A DNA stretch of 64,000 nt, taken from NCBI GenBank assembly GCA_963667725.2, contig CAXXHO010000003.1, positions 608,001 to 672,000 of the forward strand. Reading direction: 5' to 3'. This document shows, piece after piece, positions 9,696 to 21,402 of the stretch. The position numbers were made by a program, and so were the translations under genes. The notes under the pieces were generated by a model. That model worked only from the letters and a program-made list of their open reading frames with translations, did no database searches and had not been told where the DNA came from. Every line of letters begins with the position of its first letter. The first letter of the stretch is position 1. This stretch comes from Treponemataceae bacterium. GTDB taxonomy: Bacteria > Spirochaetota > Spirochaetia > Treponematales > Rectinemataceae.

Positions 9696-10754
9696 TTGGA
9701 TGATGCGCCGAAAAACGCTAGATCCTTAAGAGTATTGATTCTTTATTCCCGTTCTTCCAATCCCACAGTGGCCATGGCCGATGATCGGCGCTTCGGCCGG
9801 TTCGCCTCGATCCTTGCCGACGGCGGATTCACCGCCAGGCTGGCATCCCCCGACTCCATCGCTATGCTTGACGCCCTCATCGCCGAATTCGGCCCCGACC
9901 TTGTTTTCAGCGCTCCCGATCATTTGCCCGAGTCCTCCCCGATGCCCGCCGGCGTCACCTTCCCGGCGAACGCCAGGATAAACGTGCACGGATGGCTGGA
10001 GGGAAGGGGAATCCCCTATGTGGGCTCTCCTCCCGATATCATCGAGCTCGCTCTTTCCAAGACGGCGCTCAAGGAAAAGTGGGTAAAGAACGGGATTTCC
10101 ACGCCCGAGTTCCTTTCCTTGAATTCGGGTTCCGATCTTTCCGCCGTGGACAGATCCTCGATTCCCCCCTTTCCCTGCATCGTGAAGCCGTCGGACGCGG
10201 GCAATTCCCGCGGCATCACGAAGGATTCTGTCGTTTTCGACATGAAAGGCTTGGCCTCCCTCGTCGCCAGCCTGGGCAGGGATTTCAGGCATATCCTCAT
10301 TGAGCATTACCTGGGGCTCTACCCCGATTTCCGCGAAATCACCTGCGCCTGCATAGGCAACGGCGAGGAGAGGCTTCTCCTGCCCGTGGAAATTGTCTTT
10401 ATCAACCCCCCCGGCATTCATGTGGTCACGACAGAGGACAAGGACGGCAGCAGGACGGAAGCCCGGCCGATAGCTGACGGCTCCTTGCGCGAGGCGGCCC
10501 AAGCCTTCGCGGCCGCGGCTTTTTCTTCGGCGGGCGATATCAGGGATTATTCCCGCTGCGACATGATTTTCGCCGGCGGGAAATTCTGGGCCATCGAAAT
10601 AAACGGCCAGCCCATGATTCCCGACGCGTGGTTCGAAGCCTGCGCGCGGCAGGCTCATCTCTCGGAGAAGCAATATATCCTGGCTATCATCGAGGCTGCC
10701 CTCAGCCGTTCGATCCGGGCTTATCAGCCTTTGAGGAGGCGATACGATGTTTAA
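9696..10754 (+). CDS. ATP-grasp ligase, D-Ala-D-Ala ligase-like
   Basis: GIPYVGS, IVKPSDAGNSRGI, LIEHYL, SRCD and EINGQP ATP-grasp motifs; TTG start after AGGAGG. Confidence 0.8.
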   Translation: MDDAPKNARSLRVLILYSRSSNPTVAMADDRRFGRFASILADGGFTARLASPDSIAMLDALIAEFGPDLVFSAPDHLPESSPMPAGVTFPANARINVHGWLEGRGIPYVGSPPDIIELALSKTALKEKWVKNGISTPEFLSLNSGSDLSAVDRSSIPPFPCIVKPSDAGNSRGITKDSVVFDMKGLASLVASLGRDFRHILIEHYLGLYPDFREITCACIGNGEERLLLPVEIVFINPPGIHVVTTEDKDGSRTEARPIADGSLREAAQAFAAAAFSSAGDIRDYSRCDMIFAGGKFWAIEINGQPMIPDAWFEACARQAHLSEKQYILAIIEAALSRSIRAYQPLRRRYDV

Positions 10755-12636
10755 AATTTCCAGCCATGACGTTTTCGGCCTCATTCATCCTTCCATAGAC
10801 GTGCATACCCTCGGGATGCTTTCCTTCTCCCAGGTTCTGGAGGACTGCGGCATAGAATCCTGCATCGCCGACGCCGACGTAGGCGGCGATATCGAGTCCC
10901 TTTCCAGGCATGAGGGCGGCACCGTGCTTCGCGCCTGGCTTCGCAACAGGAGGATTTCGGTGCTCGGCTTCAGCTACAGGCTGGACCCTGCCGATGCCCT
11001 CCATCTTTTCGAAGTCCTGTATGAATTCCTCCACCGCGAGAAGATGCTTCTTTCGGACGGCGGTCCTGTCAGAGGGCTGTTTTTCGCCGGGCTTCCGGAG
11101 GCCTGCGAGGCGGTTCTCGCCAGGCACCACGATCTGACGGGCGTCTTCCGGGGCGATGAAGCGCCCCACGAGACCATGCGTATTCTCGGCATCGATGAGG
11201 ACATGATGCCTCAAACCCTCTCCGAAGGGCTTAAGTACGATGCCGCGAGGATGGCCTTCGGCGAGTCTCTCGTGAAGGAAGGCAGCTACAACGCGGTGAA
11301 GCCCGTCAACAGATCAGACTCTCCGGGATTCGGCTCATGGGGCGACAGGCTGACGGCGAGGATTGCCCACGGTACGGCACGAAAGCTTCCGCCCCTCATG
11401 CGCGTCCATGCCGGCCCCTACCTGCCCGACAGGAAGGAAGCGGTCAGGCTTTTTACCGAGTGGGTGAAGCGGCTGGCCTCGGGCGGCTATCTGGATATTC
11501 TCTCGATAGGCACTTCCCAGCTCAGCCAATCCAATTTCGGGGAAGACTGGGAAGGCAAGATCAATGGCGGCGGCGTTCCCATCGCCAGCGCCGCCGAGTT
11601 CGCGGCCGTATGGAAGGTGGCGCGCCCCATGCTGGTGCGTACCTACGCGGGCACCAAGGATGTGCCTGCCCTCGCCAGGATGTACGAGGAAACGATCGAT
11701 ATTGCCTGGCACGCGCTTTCCCTGTGGTGGTTCTGCAAGCTGGACGGAAGAGGCCCCAATTCGGTGCTCGATAACCTGGGCGAGCATTTTCAGGCCATGC
11801 GCTATATAGCCTCGACGGGCAAACCGCTCGAGATGAACGTGCCGCATCACTTCGCTTTCAGGGGCACCGACGACCTTGGCTATATCGTATCGGGCTATAT
11901 CGCGGCCAAGGCCGCCAAGCTTCAGGGCATACAGAATCTCGTGCTGCAGATAATGTTCAATACGCCTAAATACCTCTGGGGCATCCAGGACCTCGCCAAG
12001 GCCAGGGTTCTTCTCAGGCTGGTAAAGGGGCTCGAGGACGGGAATTTTAGGGTCTTCCTCCAGCCGCGGGGGGGCTTGGATTATTTCTCGCCCGAACCCG
12101 AGCGGGCCAAGGCCCAGCTGGCCGCGGTGACCGCCATGATGGACGACATCGAGCCTTACGACGAGACCAGCCCTCAGATCATCCATGTGGTGAGCTATTC
12201 TGAAGCCTATAAGCTGGCCGATCCGCCTGTCATCGAGGAGAGCATCAGGATAACGCGCCATGCGCTGCGGGAGTACCGGCGCCTCAGGCGCGAAGGCGGC
12301 GTGGACGACATGGCGTCGAGCGCCGAGGTGGCCGCGCGAGAGAAGATTCTCCTGGACGATGCCTTGCGGATGATACGGGCCGCGGAAAGGCTCATTCCCG
12401 ACACCTATTCTCCTTATGGGCTCTACACGATGCTTTCTTCAGGTTTCTTCGCCCTTCCGTGGCTGACTTCCTGCCGCGAGGAATTCCCGGCCGCGAATAT
12501 TGGAACCCGACTCTTGAACGGGGGAATGCATGCCGTCGACGTGGAAGGATCGCCTCTTTCCGTGGAAGCGAGGATCGAGATGGCGAGAACCCATCTGGCA
12601 AAAACCAGCGGCGGAGGAGATCGTTATGGCGCCTGA
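10747..12636 (+). CDS. Cobalamin-binding protein (N-terminal DxHxxG B12 domain plus large uncharacterised C-terminal domain)
   Basis: SIDVHTLG (DxHxxG), GFSYRL (SxL-type) and FFAG, typical of base-off/His-on B12 domains; 629 aa; no radical-SAM CxxxCxxC. Confidence 0.75.
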   Translation: MFKISSHDVFGLIHPSIDVHTLGMLSFSQVLEDCGIESCIADADVGGDIESLSRHEGGTVLRAWLRNRRISVLGFSYRLDPADALHLFEVLYEFLHREKMLLSDGGPVRGLFFAGLPEACEAVLARHHDLTGVFRGDEAPHETMRILGIDEDMMPQTLSEGLKYDAARMAFGESLVKEGSYNAVKPVNRSDSPGFGSWGDRLTARIAHGTARKLPPLMRVHAGPYLPDRKEAVRLFTEWVKRLASGGYLDILSIGTSQLSQSNFGEDWEGKINGGGVPIASAAEFAAVWKVARPMLVRTYAGTKDVPALARMYEETIDIAWHALSLWWFCKLDGRGPNSVLDNLGEHFQAMRYIASTGKPLEMNVPHHFAFRGTDDLGYIVSGYIAAKAAKLQGIQNLVLQIMFNTPKYLWGIQDLAKARVLLRLVKGLEDGNFRVFLQPRGGLDYFSPEPERAKAQLAAVTAMMDDIEPYDETSPQIIHVVSYSEAYKLADPPVIEESIRITRHALREYRRLRREGGVDDMASSAEVAAREKILLDDALRMIRAAERLIPDTYSPYGLYTMLSSGFFALPWLTSCREEFPAANIGTRLLNGGMHAVDVEGSPLSVEARIEMARTHLAKTSGGGDRYGA

Positions 12637-15365: not shown

Positions 15366-16676
15366 ATGGCAGAAAAGAAGGAAAAGAAGGGCATTTTCGA
15401 TTGGTATTTCAAGACCAATCTTCTCGCCCGCATTCTTGTTGGCCTCATACTTGGTGCCGTCGTGGGCATCGTCCTGGGATTTTTCCCCGATTCGGTAAAG
15501 CCCTTTGTCGATAATTCGAAATTCTTCGGCGACCTCTTCATCCGACTGCTGAAGATGATCGTGGTGCCAGTCATCCTCTTCTCCCTGATCGCGGGAGCGG
15601 CAAGCATCGATCCCGGCCGCCTCGGCCGCGTCGGCGTCAAGATCATGGCCTATTATCTGTTCACGAGCGCCCTCGCTGTCGCCATCGGCCTGGTATTTGC
15701 CAATATCCTCCAGCCCGGAGCCGGCTTCAATATCGTCGGAGCGGCCGGAGTCCAGGGAAAGGCGGCCGCCTCGCTGCCGATCTCGCAGATACTCCTCAAT
15801 ATCGTCCCGACCAACCCCATCGATTCCCTCGCCAAGGGTGACGTTCTCCCGATCATCTTCTTCGCCGTGGTCTTCGGGATCGCCCTCTCCTATATCAAGG
15901 GCGCCGAGAACAAGAGCCTGGCCAAGGCGGGCGCGACCCTCCTGGACGTGGTGAACGCAGCCGCCGAAACCATGTATAAAGTGGTTTCCGGCATCATGCA
16001 GTACGCGCCGATCGGCGTATTCGTCCTCATCGCCCAGGTGTTCGCCCAGCAGGGACCCAAGGCCATCGGACCCCTTCTCATCGTCACCCTGACCGTTTAC
16101 ATCGGACTTCTCGTTCACCTCGTGGGCGTCTACGGCGGATTCCTGTCCATCTACAAGCTGGGCTTTCTCAAATTCCTCAAGGGAGCCAATGAGGCGATGA
16201 TTACGGCCTTTGTTACCCGATCCTCGGGCGGAACCCTTCCCATCACGATGCGCTGCGCGGAAGAAAAATTGGGCATCAACCGTTCGATCTGTTCCTTCAC
16301 CCTGCCCCTGGGCGCCACGATCAATATGGATGGAACGGCGATTTATCTGGGCGTCTGCGCCATCTTCATCGGCAACGCCATCGGTCAGCCGCTTACCATG
16401 AGCCAACAGGGCATGGTCGTACTGACCGCGACCCTCGCTTCCATCGGCACGGCGGGCGTACCGGGCGCCGGAGCCATCATGCTCCTCATGGTCCTTGAAT
16501 CGATCGGCCTGAAGGTCACCGAAGGCTCGGCGGTAGCCGCGGCTTATGCGATGATCCTCGGCATCGATGCCCTCCTCGACATGGGACGCACGAGCCTCAA
16601 CGTCACGGGCGACATCGCGGGTTCAGCCATTGTGGCCAAGACTGAAAAAGAACTGGACATGACAAACTGGAAATAA
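15366..16676 (+). CDS. Dicarboxylate/amino acid:cation symporter (DAACS, GltP/GltPh-like)
   Basis: [34 protein letters not shown] and [12 protein letters not shown] motifs. Confidence 0.93.
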
Positions 16677-16703
16677 GGGCCAGTCCCTGTTCCCATGATT
16701 GCC

Positions 16704-16748
16704 GGCCGGGCCGCCTCCGCGAGAGGTTGCCTGGCCTTTTTATTATTT
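16704..16748 (+). terminator. Intrinsic terminator after the DAACS gene
   Basis: GC-rich stem GGCCGGGC.GCCTC / GAGGT.GCCTGGCC followed by TTTTTATTATTT. Confidence 0.7.
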
Positions 16749-16749
16749 C

Positions 16750-16829
16750 TGCATATATTATGCAAAAAATATGCATAATATGACGAAAACCCCTTGATTT
16801 ATTCTAAATATATGCATAATATGCTTTTC
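16750..16829 (+). promoter_or_regulatory. argG promoter (TTGATT-17-TAATAT) with ARG-box-like TGCAT/ATGCA repeats
   Basis: -35 at 16794-16799 and -10 at 16817-16822; palindrome TGCATATATTATGCA at 16750-16764 and further ATGCA half-sites. Confidence 0.6.
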
Positions 16830-16901
16830 ATGATGTTTAGATTCGAGTATTCTTCCTTTCTTCCTCAAACCCGCCTCGAGGCCCGCCTCCGTCGTCGCTG
16901 A
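16830..16901 (+). CDS. Putative leader peptide MMFRFEYSSFLPQTRLEARLRRR (23 aa)
   Basis: Open frame starting 7 nt after the predicted -10 and ending CGC CTC CGT CGT CGC TGA, 67 nt before argG. Confidence 0.55.
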   Translation: MMFRFEYSSFLPQTRLEARLRRR

Positions 16902-16968
16902 GCATTCATTTGGCCGACAGGGCGTTCAGCCGGAAAATCACTAGAAAATGTATTGCAAGGAGTAAGCC

Positions 16969-18246
16969 ATGAAAAAGAAAATCGTGCTCGCATATTCGGG
17001 CGGCCTCGACACTACCGTCATCGTTCCCTGGCTCAAGGAAAATTATGACTGCGACGTGGTCGCCGCCTGCGGGGATGTAGGACAGGAAGCCGACTGGGCG
17101 ACCATGGAAAAACGCGCCCTCGCTTCCGGCGCGATCAAGTTCATCAAGCTGGACCAGAAAGACGAATTCGTGAAAGACTACCTCTGGGCTCTCGTGAAGT
17201 CGGGAAGTCCCTACGAGAAGAAATATCTGCTTGGCACCTCGGCGGCGCGGCCCCTCCTCGCCAAGGGTCTAGCGCAGATCGCCATCGCCGAGAAAGCCGA
17301 CGCGATCGCCCATGGCTGCACGGGCAAGGGCAACGACCAGGTCCGCTTCGAGCTGGGCATTAAGGCTTTCGCGCCTGAGATGGAAGTGATAGCTCCCTGG
17401 AGAATATGGGACATCCAGAGCAGGGAAGAGGAGATCGAATACCTCGAGAAGCGGAATATCCCCGTGCCCATGAAGAAGTCCGACTCCTATTCCCGCGACG
17501 ACAATGTCTGGCACATCAGCCATGAGGGCCTCGATCTCGAGAATCCGGCCAACGAACCCAAGTTCGAAGGCATGCTTAAAATGTGCGTTCCCCCCGAACA
17601 GGCGCCCGACAAGGCCGAATACGTGACCATAGGCTTCGAGAAGGGCGTGCCAGTCTCGGTGAACGGCGAGAAGCTCGATCCCCTCTCCATCGTCAAGAAA
17701 CTCAACGTCATCGGCGGCAAGAACGGCGTGGGCGTCATCGATATGGTGGAAAACCGCGTGGTGGGCATGAAGTCCCGCGGCGTCTACGAGACCCCGGGCG
17801 GCACCATCATCATGGAAGCCCACGACAAGCTCGAACAGCTCTGCCTCGATAAGAAAACGCTCTCCTTCAAGCTCACGGTGGCCCAGCGCTTCGCCGAGAT
17901 ACTCTACGAAGGCGAGTGGTTCTCGCCCCTCTGCGCGGCTCTCAACGCCTTCATCGATTCAACCCAGGAAGTGGTGACGGGCAGCGTGACCGTAAAGCTC
18001 TACAAGGGTTCCATACTTTCGGCCGGCGCGACCTCGCCCTATTCGCTCTACGACGCGAGCCTCGCGAGCTTCACGACGGGACCGCTCTTCTCCCACAAGG
18101 ATTCCAGCGGCTTCATCAACCTCTTCGGCCTGCCCACCAAGGTGAGGGCGCGGCTCAACGCGCGCATCGCCGCCCACGGCACGGCTTCCGGCCCCGATGT
18201 GGTGAAACCGGGCTGTTCGGGCTATACTGCTCCAGCGGGCGACTGA
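16969..18246 (+). CDS. argG: Argininosuccinate synthase
   Basis: LAYSGGLDT, HGCTGKGNDQVRFE and ENRVVGMKSRGVYETPG motifs. Confidence 0.97.
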   Translation: MKKKIVLAYSGGLDTTVIVPWLKENYDCDVVAACGDVGQEADWATMEKRALASGAIKFIKLDQKDEFVKDYLWALVKSGSPYEKKYLLGTSAARPLLAKGLAQIAIAEKADAIAHGCTGKGNDQVRFELGIKAFAPEMEVIAPWRIWDIQSREEEIEYLEKRNIPVPMKKSDSYSRDDNVWHISHEGLDLENPANEPKFEGMLKMCVPPEQAPDKAEYVTIGFEKGVPVSVNGEKLDPLSIVKKLNVIGGKNGVGVIDMVENRVVGMKSRGVYETPGGTIIMEAHDKLEQLCLDKKTLSFKLTVAQRFAEILYEGEWFSPLCAALNAFIDSTQEVVTGSVTVKLYKGSILSAGATSPYSLYDASLASFTTGPLFSHKDSSGFINLFGLPTKVRARLNARIAAHGTASGPDVVKPGCSGYTAPAGD

Positions 18247-18353: not shown

Positions 18354-19847
18354 GTGGCTAAACTGTGGCAGGCCGCCGCGGGCGGCGTGGGGCTCCACCC
18401 CGACGTGGAGGCCTTTCTTTCTTCTCTTTCGGTGGATTCGAGGCTTCTGGGCGAGGACATCGAGTGCTCGATAGCCCACGCGGCGATGCTGGGGAGGCAG
18501 GGCATTCTTCCGCCCGAGGAGTCGGCGTCGATATGCGCGGCTCTCGAGCTTATGCTGGCCGAGGCAGGAGAGGGAAAGCTCGCCGTAGATCCGGAGAGCG
18601 AGGACATCCATTCCTTTATCGAGGCCGAGCTGACGAAGAGGCTCGGCGAGGCGGGGAAGGCTGTCCATGCCGGGAGAAGCAGGAACGACCAGGTGGCTGT
18701 CGCCTTCAGGATGCATATTCTGCGGGCTTTCGACGCGACCGAGGGGGCGGCCTTGGGCGCGCTGAGAGCCTTGCTCGATCTGGCCGCGAATCACAGAGAA
18801 ACGATCATGCCGGGGTATACGCACTTGCAGCGCGCCCAGCCGGTGACGCTCGCGCACCACCTGCTTGCCTGGTGCGCCGCCCTCGAGCGCGACTGCGGCA
18901 GGTTGCGGGACGGACGCGCGCGGGCTGACGAATGTCCGCTGGGCTCAGGCGCCCTCGCGGGATCGGGTCTGCCCACCGACAGGGAATTCACGGCGGCCGC
19001 CTTAGGCTTCGCGCGTCCGTCCCGCAACACCATGGACGCCGTGGCCGATAGGGACGCATGTTTGGACTACGGGGCGGTCTGCTCCAGCATCATGGTCCAC
19101 CTCTCGCGCGCCTGCGAGGATATCGCCCTCTGGGTATCCACCGAATATTCATTCATGAGCCTGAGCGACGCTGCGAGCACCGGTTCGAGCATCATGCCCC
19201 AGAAGAGGAATCCCGATCCCGCCGAGCTCATCCGCGGAAAGACCGCGAGGGTTTTCGGGGCGCTCCAGGCCCTCCTCGTCATGCAGAAAGGCCTGCCCTA
19301 CGCCTACAACCGCGATCTCCAGGAAGACAAGGAAATGTTCTTCGACATCGAAGACACCGTGACTGGAGCCCTGCGCGCCTTTGCCGTCCTCGTCTCCTCG
19401 CTCCAGCCCAATGTCGAAAAGATGAGGAAAGCGGTGGACGAGGGTTTCCTCGAGGCTACCGACATAGCCGAATATCTCGTGCTGGAAGGCCTGCCTTTCA
19501 GGACCGCGTACCAGGCGGCCAAAGCCCTCGTGAAACTCAGTCTCTCCACCGGCAAGCGTTTCGCCGCGCTCTCCCTCGAGGAAATCCAGGCCAGCCATGA
19601 GGCTTTCGCTCGACCCGGCTTCGATAGGAAGGCCTTCATTGACTATCTTGAGCCCGCTTCCTGCGTGGCGAGGCGGAGGCAGACCGGCGGCCCCGCGCCC
19701 GAACGCACCGGCGAGGAGGTCCAGCGTCTGTCGGCCCTTGTCGCCGCGAGACAGGCAGCCTTGGCCGCTCAAACTGACGCTCAGATGGCTGCCCGGTTGA
19801 CCGCTCGGCGGGTTGCGAGGCAACCCGCCCGGAGCGCAGCCCCTTGA
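18354..19847 (+). CDS. argH: Argininosuccinate lyase
   Basis: HAGRSRNDQ, PGYTHLQRAQP, GSSIMPQKRNPD and YNRDLQEDKE motifs; GTG start. Confidence 0.96.
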   Translation: MAKLWQAAAGGVGLHPDVEAFLSSLSVDSRLLGEDIECSIAHAAMLGRQGILPPEESASICAALELMLAEAGEGKLAVDPESEDIHSFIEAELTKRLGEAGKAVHAGRSRNDQVAVAFRMHILRAFDATEGAALGALRALLDLAANHRETIMPGYTHLQRAQPVTLAHHLLAWCAALERDCGRLRDGRARADECPLGSGALAGSGLPTDREFTAAALGFARPSRNTMDAVADRDACLDYGAVCSSIMVHLSRACEDIALWVSTEYSFMSLSDAASTGSSIMPQKRNPDPAELIRGKTARVFGALQALLVMQKGLPYAYNRDLQEDKEMFFDIEDTVTGALRAFAVLVSSLQPNVEKMRKAVDEGFLEATDIAEYLVLEGLPFRTAYQAAKALVKLSLSTGKRFAALSLEEIQASHEAFARPGFDRKAFIDYLEPASCVARRRQTGGPAPERTGEEVQRLSALVAARQAALAAQTDAQMAARLTARRVARQPARSAAP

Positions 19848-21149: not shown

Positions 21150-21188
21150 TCCGCCCAAGCCGGAAGCTTCCAGGCGATCTTGCCGTAT

Positions 21189-21271
21189 TGGATAAATATG
21201 CAAAAAAATTACATAAATACGTAAAATTCTCGTAAAACCCCTTGATGCGACCCCTTCATCCCCGCTATTTT
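21189..21271 (+). promoter_or_regulatory. carA promoter with tandem ARG-box-like sites
   Basis: TGGATAAATATGCA and TACATAAATACGTA boxes; TTGATG (21242) -18- TATTTT (21266); shares AAAACCCCTTGAT with the argG promoter. Confidence 0.6.
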
Positions 21272-21275
21272 AAAC

Positions 21276-21396
21276 CGACACCGCCGCACCTGCCAAAGGA
21301 CCTTCCAAAGGTTTACCCCGCGCACGGTATCCCTAGCATGGCGGTGTCGTACCGCCGCTGTTTTCGGAAGCCAGAAAGGAAAGCCGGCGGAAGGAG
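21276..21396 (+). ncRNA. Candidate cis-regulatory structured leader RNA upstream of carA
   Basis: Perfect 10-bp stem CGACACCGCC/GGCGGTGTCG enclosing three small hairpins, plus mutually exclusive downstream stems. Confidence 0.5.
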
Positions 21397-21402
21397 ACAG
21401 TC

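Follow-up and report, generated by a model that had tools for sequence, protein, structure and literature searches.

The argG gene in the 64-kb stretch of DNA analysed here (the window) is preceded by an upstream open reading frame (uORF) of 23 codons that ends in arginine codons, and by comparison with related genomes this uORF is real and conserved. It is very likely regulatory, as an arginine-sensing leader of some kind, and the best reading, which we consider somewhat probable, is Rho-dependent attenuation that senses charged tRNA-Arg on top of ArgR. What the comparison shows is a frame, an end in Arg codons, a link to the start signals, a C-rich tract, a window in which no intrinsic terminator follows the leader, and predicted ArgR boxes over the promoter. 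The trp, his, leu, and thr operons are controlled by cognate-codon leader peptides, whereas arginine biosynthesis is the textbook amino-acid pathway under a repressor and not a leader peptide. An order-wide Arg-codon leader beside ArgR would give the arginine pathway a sensor of tRNA charging. Should Rho prove to be the effector, this would be a clear example of attenuation by cognate codons that needs no terminator hairpin, and terminator-based searches overlook designs of this kind. As the leaders are short and the predictions sharp, they can be tested in a laboratory host.

The argG locus and its leader

The leader ORF lies at 16830..16901 on the forward strand, with its stop codon at 16899-16901 and without an SD. 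Its 3' end, 67 nt upstream of argG, carries the conserved putative sensor codons CGC CTC CGT CGT CGC TGA (16884..16901, forward strand), which read R-L-R-R-R-stop; Arg makes up five of the last nine codons and three Arg codons stand directly before the stop. The argG gene itself, for argininosuccinate synthase (16969..18246, forward strand), matches PRK00509 and TIGR00032 of NCBIfam over cut-off, has the SD AAGGAG at 16957..16962 on the same strand, and is followed by argH (18354-19847, TIGR00838 of NCBIfam), and carA is also named by NCBIfam downstream of argG. Upstream there is a dicarboxylate/amino-acid symporter gene (15366-16676) whose NCBIfam match is below cut-off, and it ends in a predicted intrinsic terminator on the forward strand (16704..16745), a hairpin with a fold of -26 kcal/mol followed by a T-run (U5 in the transcript), which sets argG apart from the upstream gene; a simple scanner did not call this hairpin. 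No match to Rfam at gathering score, whether to a T-box or to other curated leaders, was found anywhere in the 64-kb window.

The predicted promoter consists of the -35 hexamer TTGATT (16794..16799), which has the same place relative to the ATG in relatives, and the -10 hexamer TAATAT (16817..16822), both on the forward strand; it is a weak match and a consensus scanner did not call it. The ATG of the uORF lies 36 nt past the start of the -35 hexamer, where transcription is expected to start, and the leader would thus be translated leaderless. The features named in a preliminary description of this region all hold: TTGATT at 16794, TAATAT after a 17-nt spacer, the ATG at 16830 seven nt later, a pyrimidine tract at 16848, GCTGAGC at 16897, and GTTCAGC at 16924. 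Most leaders of the order, 54 of 74, are SD-led, and of the 20 that are SD-less in 17 a TTG(A/C) hexamer precedes the ATG by 35-39 nt, and in 14 of these by 35-36 nt; of the remaining three, one is truncated where its contig ends and two show, by eye, what looks like an SD. This geometry supports the predicted promoter position and a probable start of transcription at the ATG. In five family genomes without the leader (L010, L011, L017, L046, and L047) the ATG of argG is itself at 36 nt, in the place of the uORF ATG of the window, and argG itself appears from its sequence to be leaderless there. In L005 and L006 there is a short SD-led leader without a uORF.

This genome carries an argR gene, as do 56 of 61 genomes of the family. 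A palindromic ArgR matrix trained on relatives (consensus TGCATAATTATGCA), whose four top matches in the genome lie before argR, carA, and two amino-acid ABC transporter operons, predicts two ARG boxes over the argG promoter, neither of them assigned to a strand: a distal one at 16760..16777 (score 9.4) and one between the -35 and the -10 hexamers at 16801..16818 (score 13.1). Because the genome has argR and the predicted boxes overlie the promoter, the leader would add to repression and not replace it. Strong ARG boxes were also seen at two near-duplicate amino-acid ABC transporter operons of this genome (C7:25959-26140 and C1:46160-46340), the leaders of which both have an Arg-rich frame with no ATG or GTG at its head. 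Upstream of carA (21187-21402) there is a strong ARG box, and the leader, long and GC-rich, has a fold of -53 kcal/mol over about 180 nt that reaches the SD; this leader neither matches Rfam nor contains a short ORF ending in Arg, and its structure is possibly a separate control, perhaps by pyrimidines.

Some further observations concern this locus. Contigs presumed to come from RNA, in two runs of one study, reach the symporter gene up to 16657-16658 and do not cover the leader. In run X3 a contig of depth 4.3 links the leader stop to the argG SD region (16901-16956) via a different spacer; with 21 letters on its short side the link is weak, and the contig is probably from a related organism. 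A 629-aa ORF without an NCBIfam match (10747-12636) heads a cluster with reductase-like and mechanosensitive-channel-like genes, and a cluster resembling it seems to lie directly upstream of argG in some relatives (L017 and L045).

Conservation of the leader and its probable sensor codon

The comparison used 111 upstream regions, with each operon of each genome represented once, and these were selected by the operon's first arg gene and not by leader presence. When argG was inside an operon its region was replaced by that of the operon's first gene, and loci with less than 150 nt upstream (L028 and L262), distant argG paralogues (L048 and L049), and repeat fetches of the same operon were left out. 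Curation by a rule that requires one CGT, with one leader added by hand and one dropped, gave 74 leaders, and their counts are not independent because the genomes are kin. In the family, an Arg-ending uORF was found before argG in 25 of 33 upstream regions, which bears out the conservation in relatives that the preliminary description had named as a check, and before argC in 36 of 38. In the other families of the order the leader was found in 1 of 1 (f2), 6 of 24 (f4), 4 of 5 (f5), and 2 of 2 (f6) regions, and in family f3 in none of 8. In the 28 family genomes for which both the argG and the argC loci were in view, a leader is always kept at one locus or more, and in 19 of them at both; the gene downstream of a leader is argG, argC, or argJ. 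The element goes beyond what had been described, being order-wide, SD-led in most relatives, and present in a second copy in the same genome. This second leader (C3:2138661-2138750) is SD-led, has 29 codons, ends in R-R-stop, and stands before argC-J-B-D.

An upstream ORF whose last four codons include two or more Arg occurs in 56 of 71 arg regions of the family, compared to 221 of the 1007 regions that precede other genes of this genome, and among the 20 amino acids tested at ORF ends Arg alone was enriched, the runner-up being Pro with 13 of 71. With a stricter rule, which asks for a CGT among the final four codons and for two or more Arg among the final five, the numbers were 54 of 71 family arg-operon regions and 71 of 1007 other regions of this genome, and from this excess the Arg-ending uORF is more than chance. 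Outside the order the searches were samples and not proof of absence: no leader was seen among the best 30 of 156 argG matches in a sample of the phylum, some of which are operon-internal, at 47 of 121 argC loci in a sample of the class, or by eye at 18 argR-led promoters. In this genome no leader before other amino-acid genes was found among the top 45 of 222 candidate short ORFs. A pattern scan of the genome contigs gave at least 117 matches, and among the matches listed seven were upstream of an arg gene; the remainder had no link to the arg or transporter queries used, with complete flanks for 80 matches only. Two variations of the leader end were also seen. In L032 (genome G049) the six-base unit has expanded and the end reads R-L-R-L-R-L-R-R-R-stop, and the argC leaders L181, L183, and L190 end in CGT AAA stop (Arg-Lys), so that the last Arg can be replaced by Lys.

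Among the Arg codons in the last five positions of the leaders 123 of 211 are CGT and none is CGG, compared to 19 CGT of 158 earlier in the same ORFs; these counts are partly circular because the curation rule needs one CGT, and with one CGT per leader set aside about 49 of 137 Arg codons are still CGT. In this genome CGT is the rarest Arg codon (7.9% of Arg codons) and CGC the commonest (35.5%). The tRNA-Arg anticodons found by ARAGORN are GCG, TCG, CCG, TCT, and CCT, and no tRNA-Arg with an ACG anticodon was found in this genome, which is 97% complete. CGT is therefore likely to be the sensor codon, being the rarest Arg codon and, with no ACG tRNA found, presumably read by wobble by the single tRNA-Arg(GCG) that it shares with CGC. 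In the available portion of PMC1183508, the theory of selective charging predicts that a tRNA of such a kind is the first to lose its charge, and we infer that this applies to CGT and tRNA-Arg(GCG) here.

Evidence for a translated frame, possible output, and alternative explanations

In a blind test every SD-led start in the arg upstream regions was chosen without looking at Arg, and 51 of 62 such starts lead in frame to a terminus that has CGT among its final four codons, compared to a background of 7 of 110 in the other upstream regions of this genome. The stop codons of the leaders interchange (TAA 46, TGA 23, and TAG 5), the Arg codons at their ends interchange between CGN and AGR, and the leader differs by a 12-nt in-frame indel between this genome (G000) and its nearest relative, G002 of the same genus. 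From these results the leader behaves as a translated frame. They also argue, together with the different nucleotide ends of the argC leaders, against the explanation that the ORF is untranslated and its conserved 18-mer is bound by a protein, as DNA or as RNA, or is a chance pattern, which we regard as most improbable even though CGC CTC CGT is nearly invariant at the nucleotide level in the argG leaders. If the frame is translated, the nascent peptide, through R-L-R or a conserved N-terminus, might itself arrest the ribosome on free arginine, ornithine, or a drug, as do TnaC, SpeFL, the fungal arginine attenuator peptide, and the macrolide leaders. R-[LF]-R is found in 25 of the 27 argG leaders listed and Arg-Leu-Arg is a known antibiotic stall motif (PMC8632094, in excerpt), and in one group of 29-codon argC leaders with 16 members several residues are conserved and three members end in R-K. 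However, R-[LF]-R is missing from most of this argC group, in which third positions differ only slightly more than first and second positions (0.52 vs 0.42), and across the 74 leaders the length varies from 11 to 47 codons and the N-termini are unalignable. Arrest by the peptide also sits badly with a preference for the codon CGT that goes beyond Arg as such, and with the genes downstream, which are argG, argC, or argJ and not a resistance gene, and we give it little chance.

What the leaders have in common is their composition. With the last five codons excluded the leader ORFs have 41% C and 17% G, and the 30 nt past the stop have 39% C and 18% G, compared to 25% and 26% in the background; this C-over-G skew has its centre at the stop codon and fades by about 50 nt downstream. 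Of the 74 leaders, 72 have more C than G inside the ORF and 65 after the stop. In the window this is so inside the ORF only, where the tract at 16846..16898 (forward strand; 23 C and 9 G in 53 nt), which belongs to a family-wide pattern, is a candidate Rho loading site. The variable spacer that follows (16902..16956, forward strand) has no U-tract terminator and is not C-rich, with 9 C and 11 G in its first 34 nt, and this counts against the Rho reading in the window; after the stop the skew is weakest in the 14 leaderless argG leaders (33% C and 25% G). The median of the best 60-nt C-minus-G was 17 in the leaders, 7 in the background, and 6 in 37 arg upstream regions without a leader, so that arg promoters without the leader are also without the skew. 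Among the 222 candidate short ORFs of this genome ranked by C-minus-G, the argC leader comes first and the argG leader is in the top 12. The leaders fold weakly, the median being -12.8 compared to -23.4 kcal/mol per 90 nt, and the window has a z of +2.18; the argG leader of the window folds more than the median, at -19.9 kcal/mol per 90 nt. The genome has a Rho gene (TIGR00767 over cut-off). Rut sites have been described as rich in C and poor in structure (PMC6386406, in excerpt), and ribosomes stalled on a uORF shield rut sites, including one inside the uORF cruR (excerpted text of PMC12360218). The C-rich tract is compositional evidence for Rho loading, and it could serve another purpose. 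Of the 16 leaders in the 29-codon argC group, 14 have a small GGCG-loop-CGCC hairpin with a variable loop directly 3' of the stop, followed by a C/A-rich tract; this hairpin is possibly a pause or a Rho-loading element, and because its stem is invariant it is without support from covariation.

Two other outputs were weighed against termination by Rho. One is translational attenuation, in which the argG SD is kept in a pairing with the leader RNA until a stalled ribosome releases it, as in the mycobacterial poly-Cys leaders; the preliminary description had proposed such control from the complementarity of the pyrimidine tract to the SD. A duplex of -5.6 kcal/mol between the tract and the SD is indeed possible, and the CTCC of the RLR codons is complementary to GGAG, but the pairing probability is 0.07 or less and a modelled stalled ribosome does not free the SD in the window, where the opening energy goes from 5.4 to 5.6 kcal/mol. 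Across the 74 leaders a modelled stalled ribosome cuts the opening energy of the SD by at least 2 kcal/mol in only 4 (5 with queued ribosomes), and a duplex of the SD with the uORF beats shuffles in only 2. This explanation is accordingly very unlikely. The pairing of GCTGAGC with GTTCAGC across the stop, which had also been suggested, can be drawn, but its probability is 0.13 and it is not kept in G002, and a pairing of the Arg codons with the spacer, which beats shuffles in only 4 of 74 leaders, was rejected. That no U-tract terminator follows the leader agrees with the scanner, which calls no terminator-like site in 16400-17100, and in all the leaders there are 8 of 74 with candidates for a hairpin and U-run, mostly weak, so that an intrinsic terminator was rejected as well. 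From these predictions, what stands of the preliminary proposal is a probably leaderless Arg-codon leader on top of ArgR, with Rho as the option for its output, and what does not is translational control via the anti-SD pairing and the stop hairpin. The other output is mRNA stability or some other Rho-independent effect: stalling on Arg would sense arginine all the same, and the ribosome would shield the transcript from nucleases. This fits all the conservation data, and in Salmonella tandem Arg codons of speF orf34 switch sensitivity to RNase G (PMC6386406, in the part available), but it leaves unexplained the position of the C-over-G skew, which has its centre at the stop and dies away some 50 nt on, and no conserved structure was found downstream of the 74 leaders. 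We consider it rather unlikely.

Proposed mechanism and known systems

Rho-dependent attenuation, the reading that we prefer, would work as follows. Transcription would start at the ATG at 16830 and the ribosome would initiate leaderless. When charged tRNA-Arg is plentiful, the ribosome would complete the 23 codons and depart, and the weakly folded C-rich stretch thus exposed would allow Rho to load and to terminate transcription in the spacer or early in argG. When charged tRNA-Arg is low, the CGT codons would hold up the ribosome where the C-rich stretch ends on its 3' side, and the ribosome would there block the loading or the translocation of Rho, so that RNA polymerase could read into argG-argH. 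There would then be a division of labour in which ArgR sets initiation by free arginine and the leader adds control by tRNA charging. The distance from the leader stop to the gene varies from 35 to 263 nt, and because spacers are as short as 35 nt there can be little room for termination before argG. Control by Rho was also predicted for the mycobacterial Cys leaders (PMC1262725, in excerpt), whereas reporters gave translational control (10.1101/834739, in excerpt), and this weakens the Rho reading here since a like prediction proved otherwise. More tentatively, with a chance that we put a little short of even, this spirochaete order may run arginine synthesis by a structure-free attenuator in which the Rho loading site is the reading frame, capped by wobble-read CGT, with no conserved peptide or hairpin. 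Such an attenuator would be leaderless or SD-led, would precede the first arg gene, be it argG, argC, or argJ, and would be lost by a deletion that leaves argG leaderless.

We found no Arg-codon leader for an arginine-biosynthesis operon in the literature, where closed-journal papers, older comparative-genomics surveys of attenuators, and supplements may carry such a prediction, and in the available part of PMC1262725 T-boxes are the sole RNA-level control named for arginine. From what the excerpts of the sources give, the leader shares features with several known systems. Like the attenuators trpL, hisL, leuL, thrL, and ilv (PMC1183508), it has cognate, starvation-sensitive codons before a biosynthesis operon, but these have a terminator/antiterminator pair, whereas the window has none and the regulatory codons abut the stop. 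Like tnaC, speFL/orf34, and cruR of Bordetella (PMC12360218 and PMC6386406), it is a short uORF without an intrinsic terminator, with a C-rich tract beside or inside the uORF that a stalled ribosome could shield. These three stall via a conserved ligand-sensing peptide and their targets are catabolic, polyamine, or uptake genes, whereas in the arg leader the peptide varies while the cognate codons are conserved, and the target is amino-acid biosynthesis. The macrolide-sensing leaders (R/K-X-R/K) have the R-L-R motif in common with it, but the resistance or ribosome-rescue gene that lies downstream of them is not found at the arg leaders.

The mycobacterial poly-Cys sORFs (10.1101/834739 and PMC1262725, as excerpted) share with the leader of the window cognate codons abutting the stop before a biosynthesis operon; they are leaderless, as the leader of the window probably is, and like the arg leaders they occur in several copies per genome. 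They differ in that an exceptionally stable duplex hides their SD, whereas no such duplex was found in the arg leaders, most of which are SD-led. In rbfL of Staphylococcus aureus (10.1101/2025.06.19.660503, in excerpt) a rare Arg codon in a uORF also senses arginine, but rbfL overlaps the SD of the gene downstream and its effect on starvation is to repress a biofilm regulator, whereas the arg leader has its stop 35-263 nt off and induction is predicted. Set beside these systems, and without the terminator of the classical attenuators, the arrest peptide of tnaC, or the SD duplex of the poly-Cys leaders, the arg leader would work like a leader-peptide attenuator that senses starvation.
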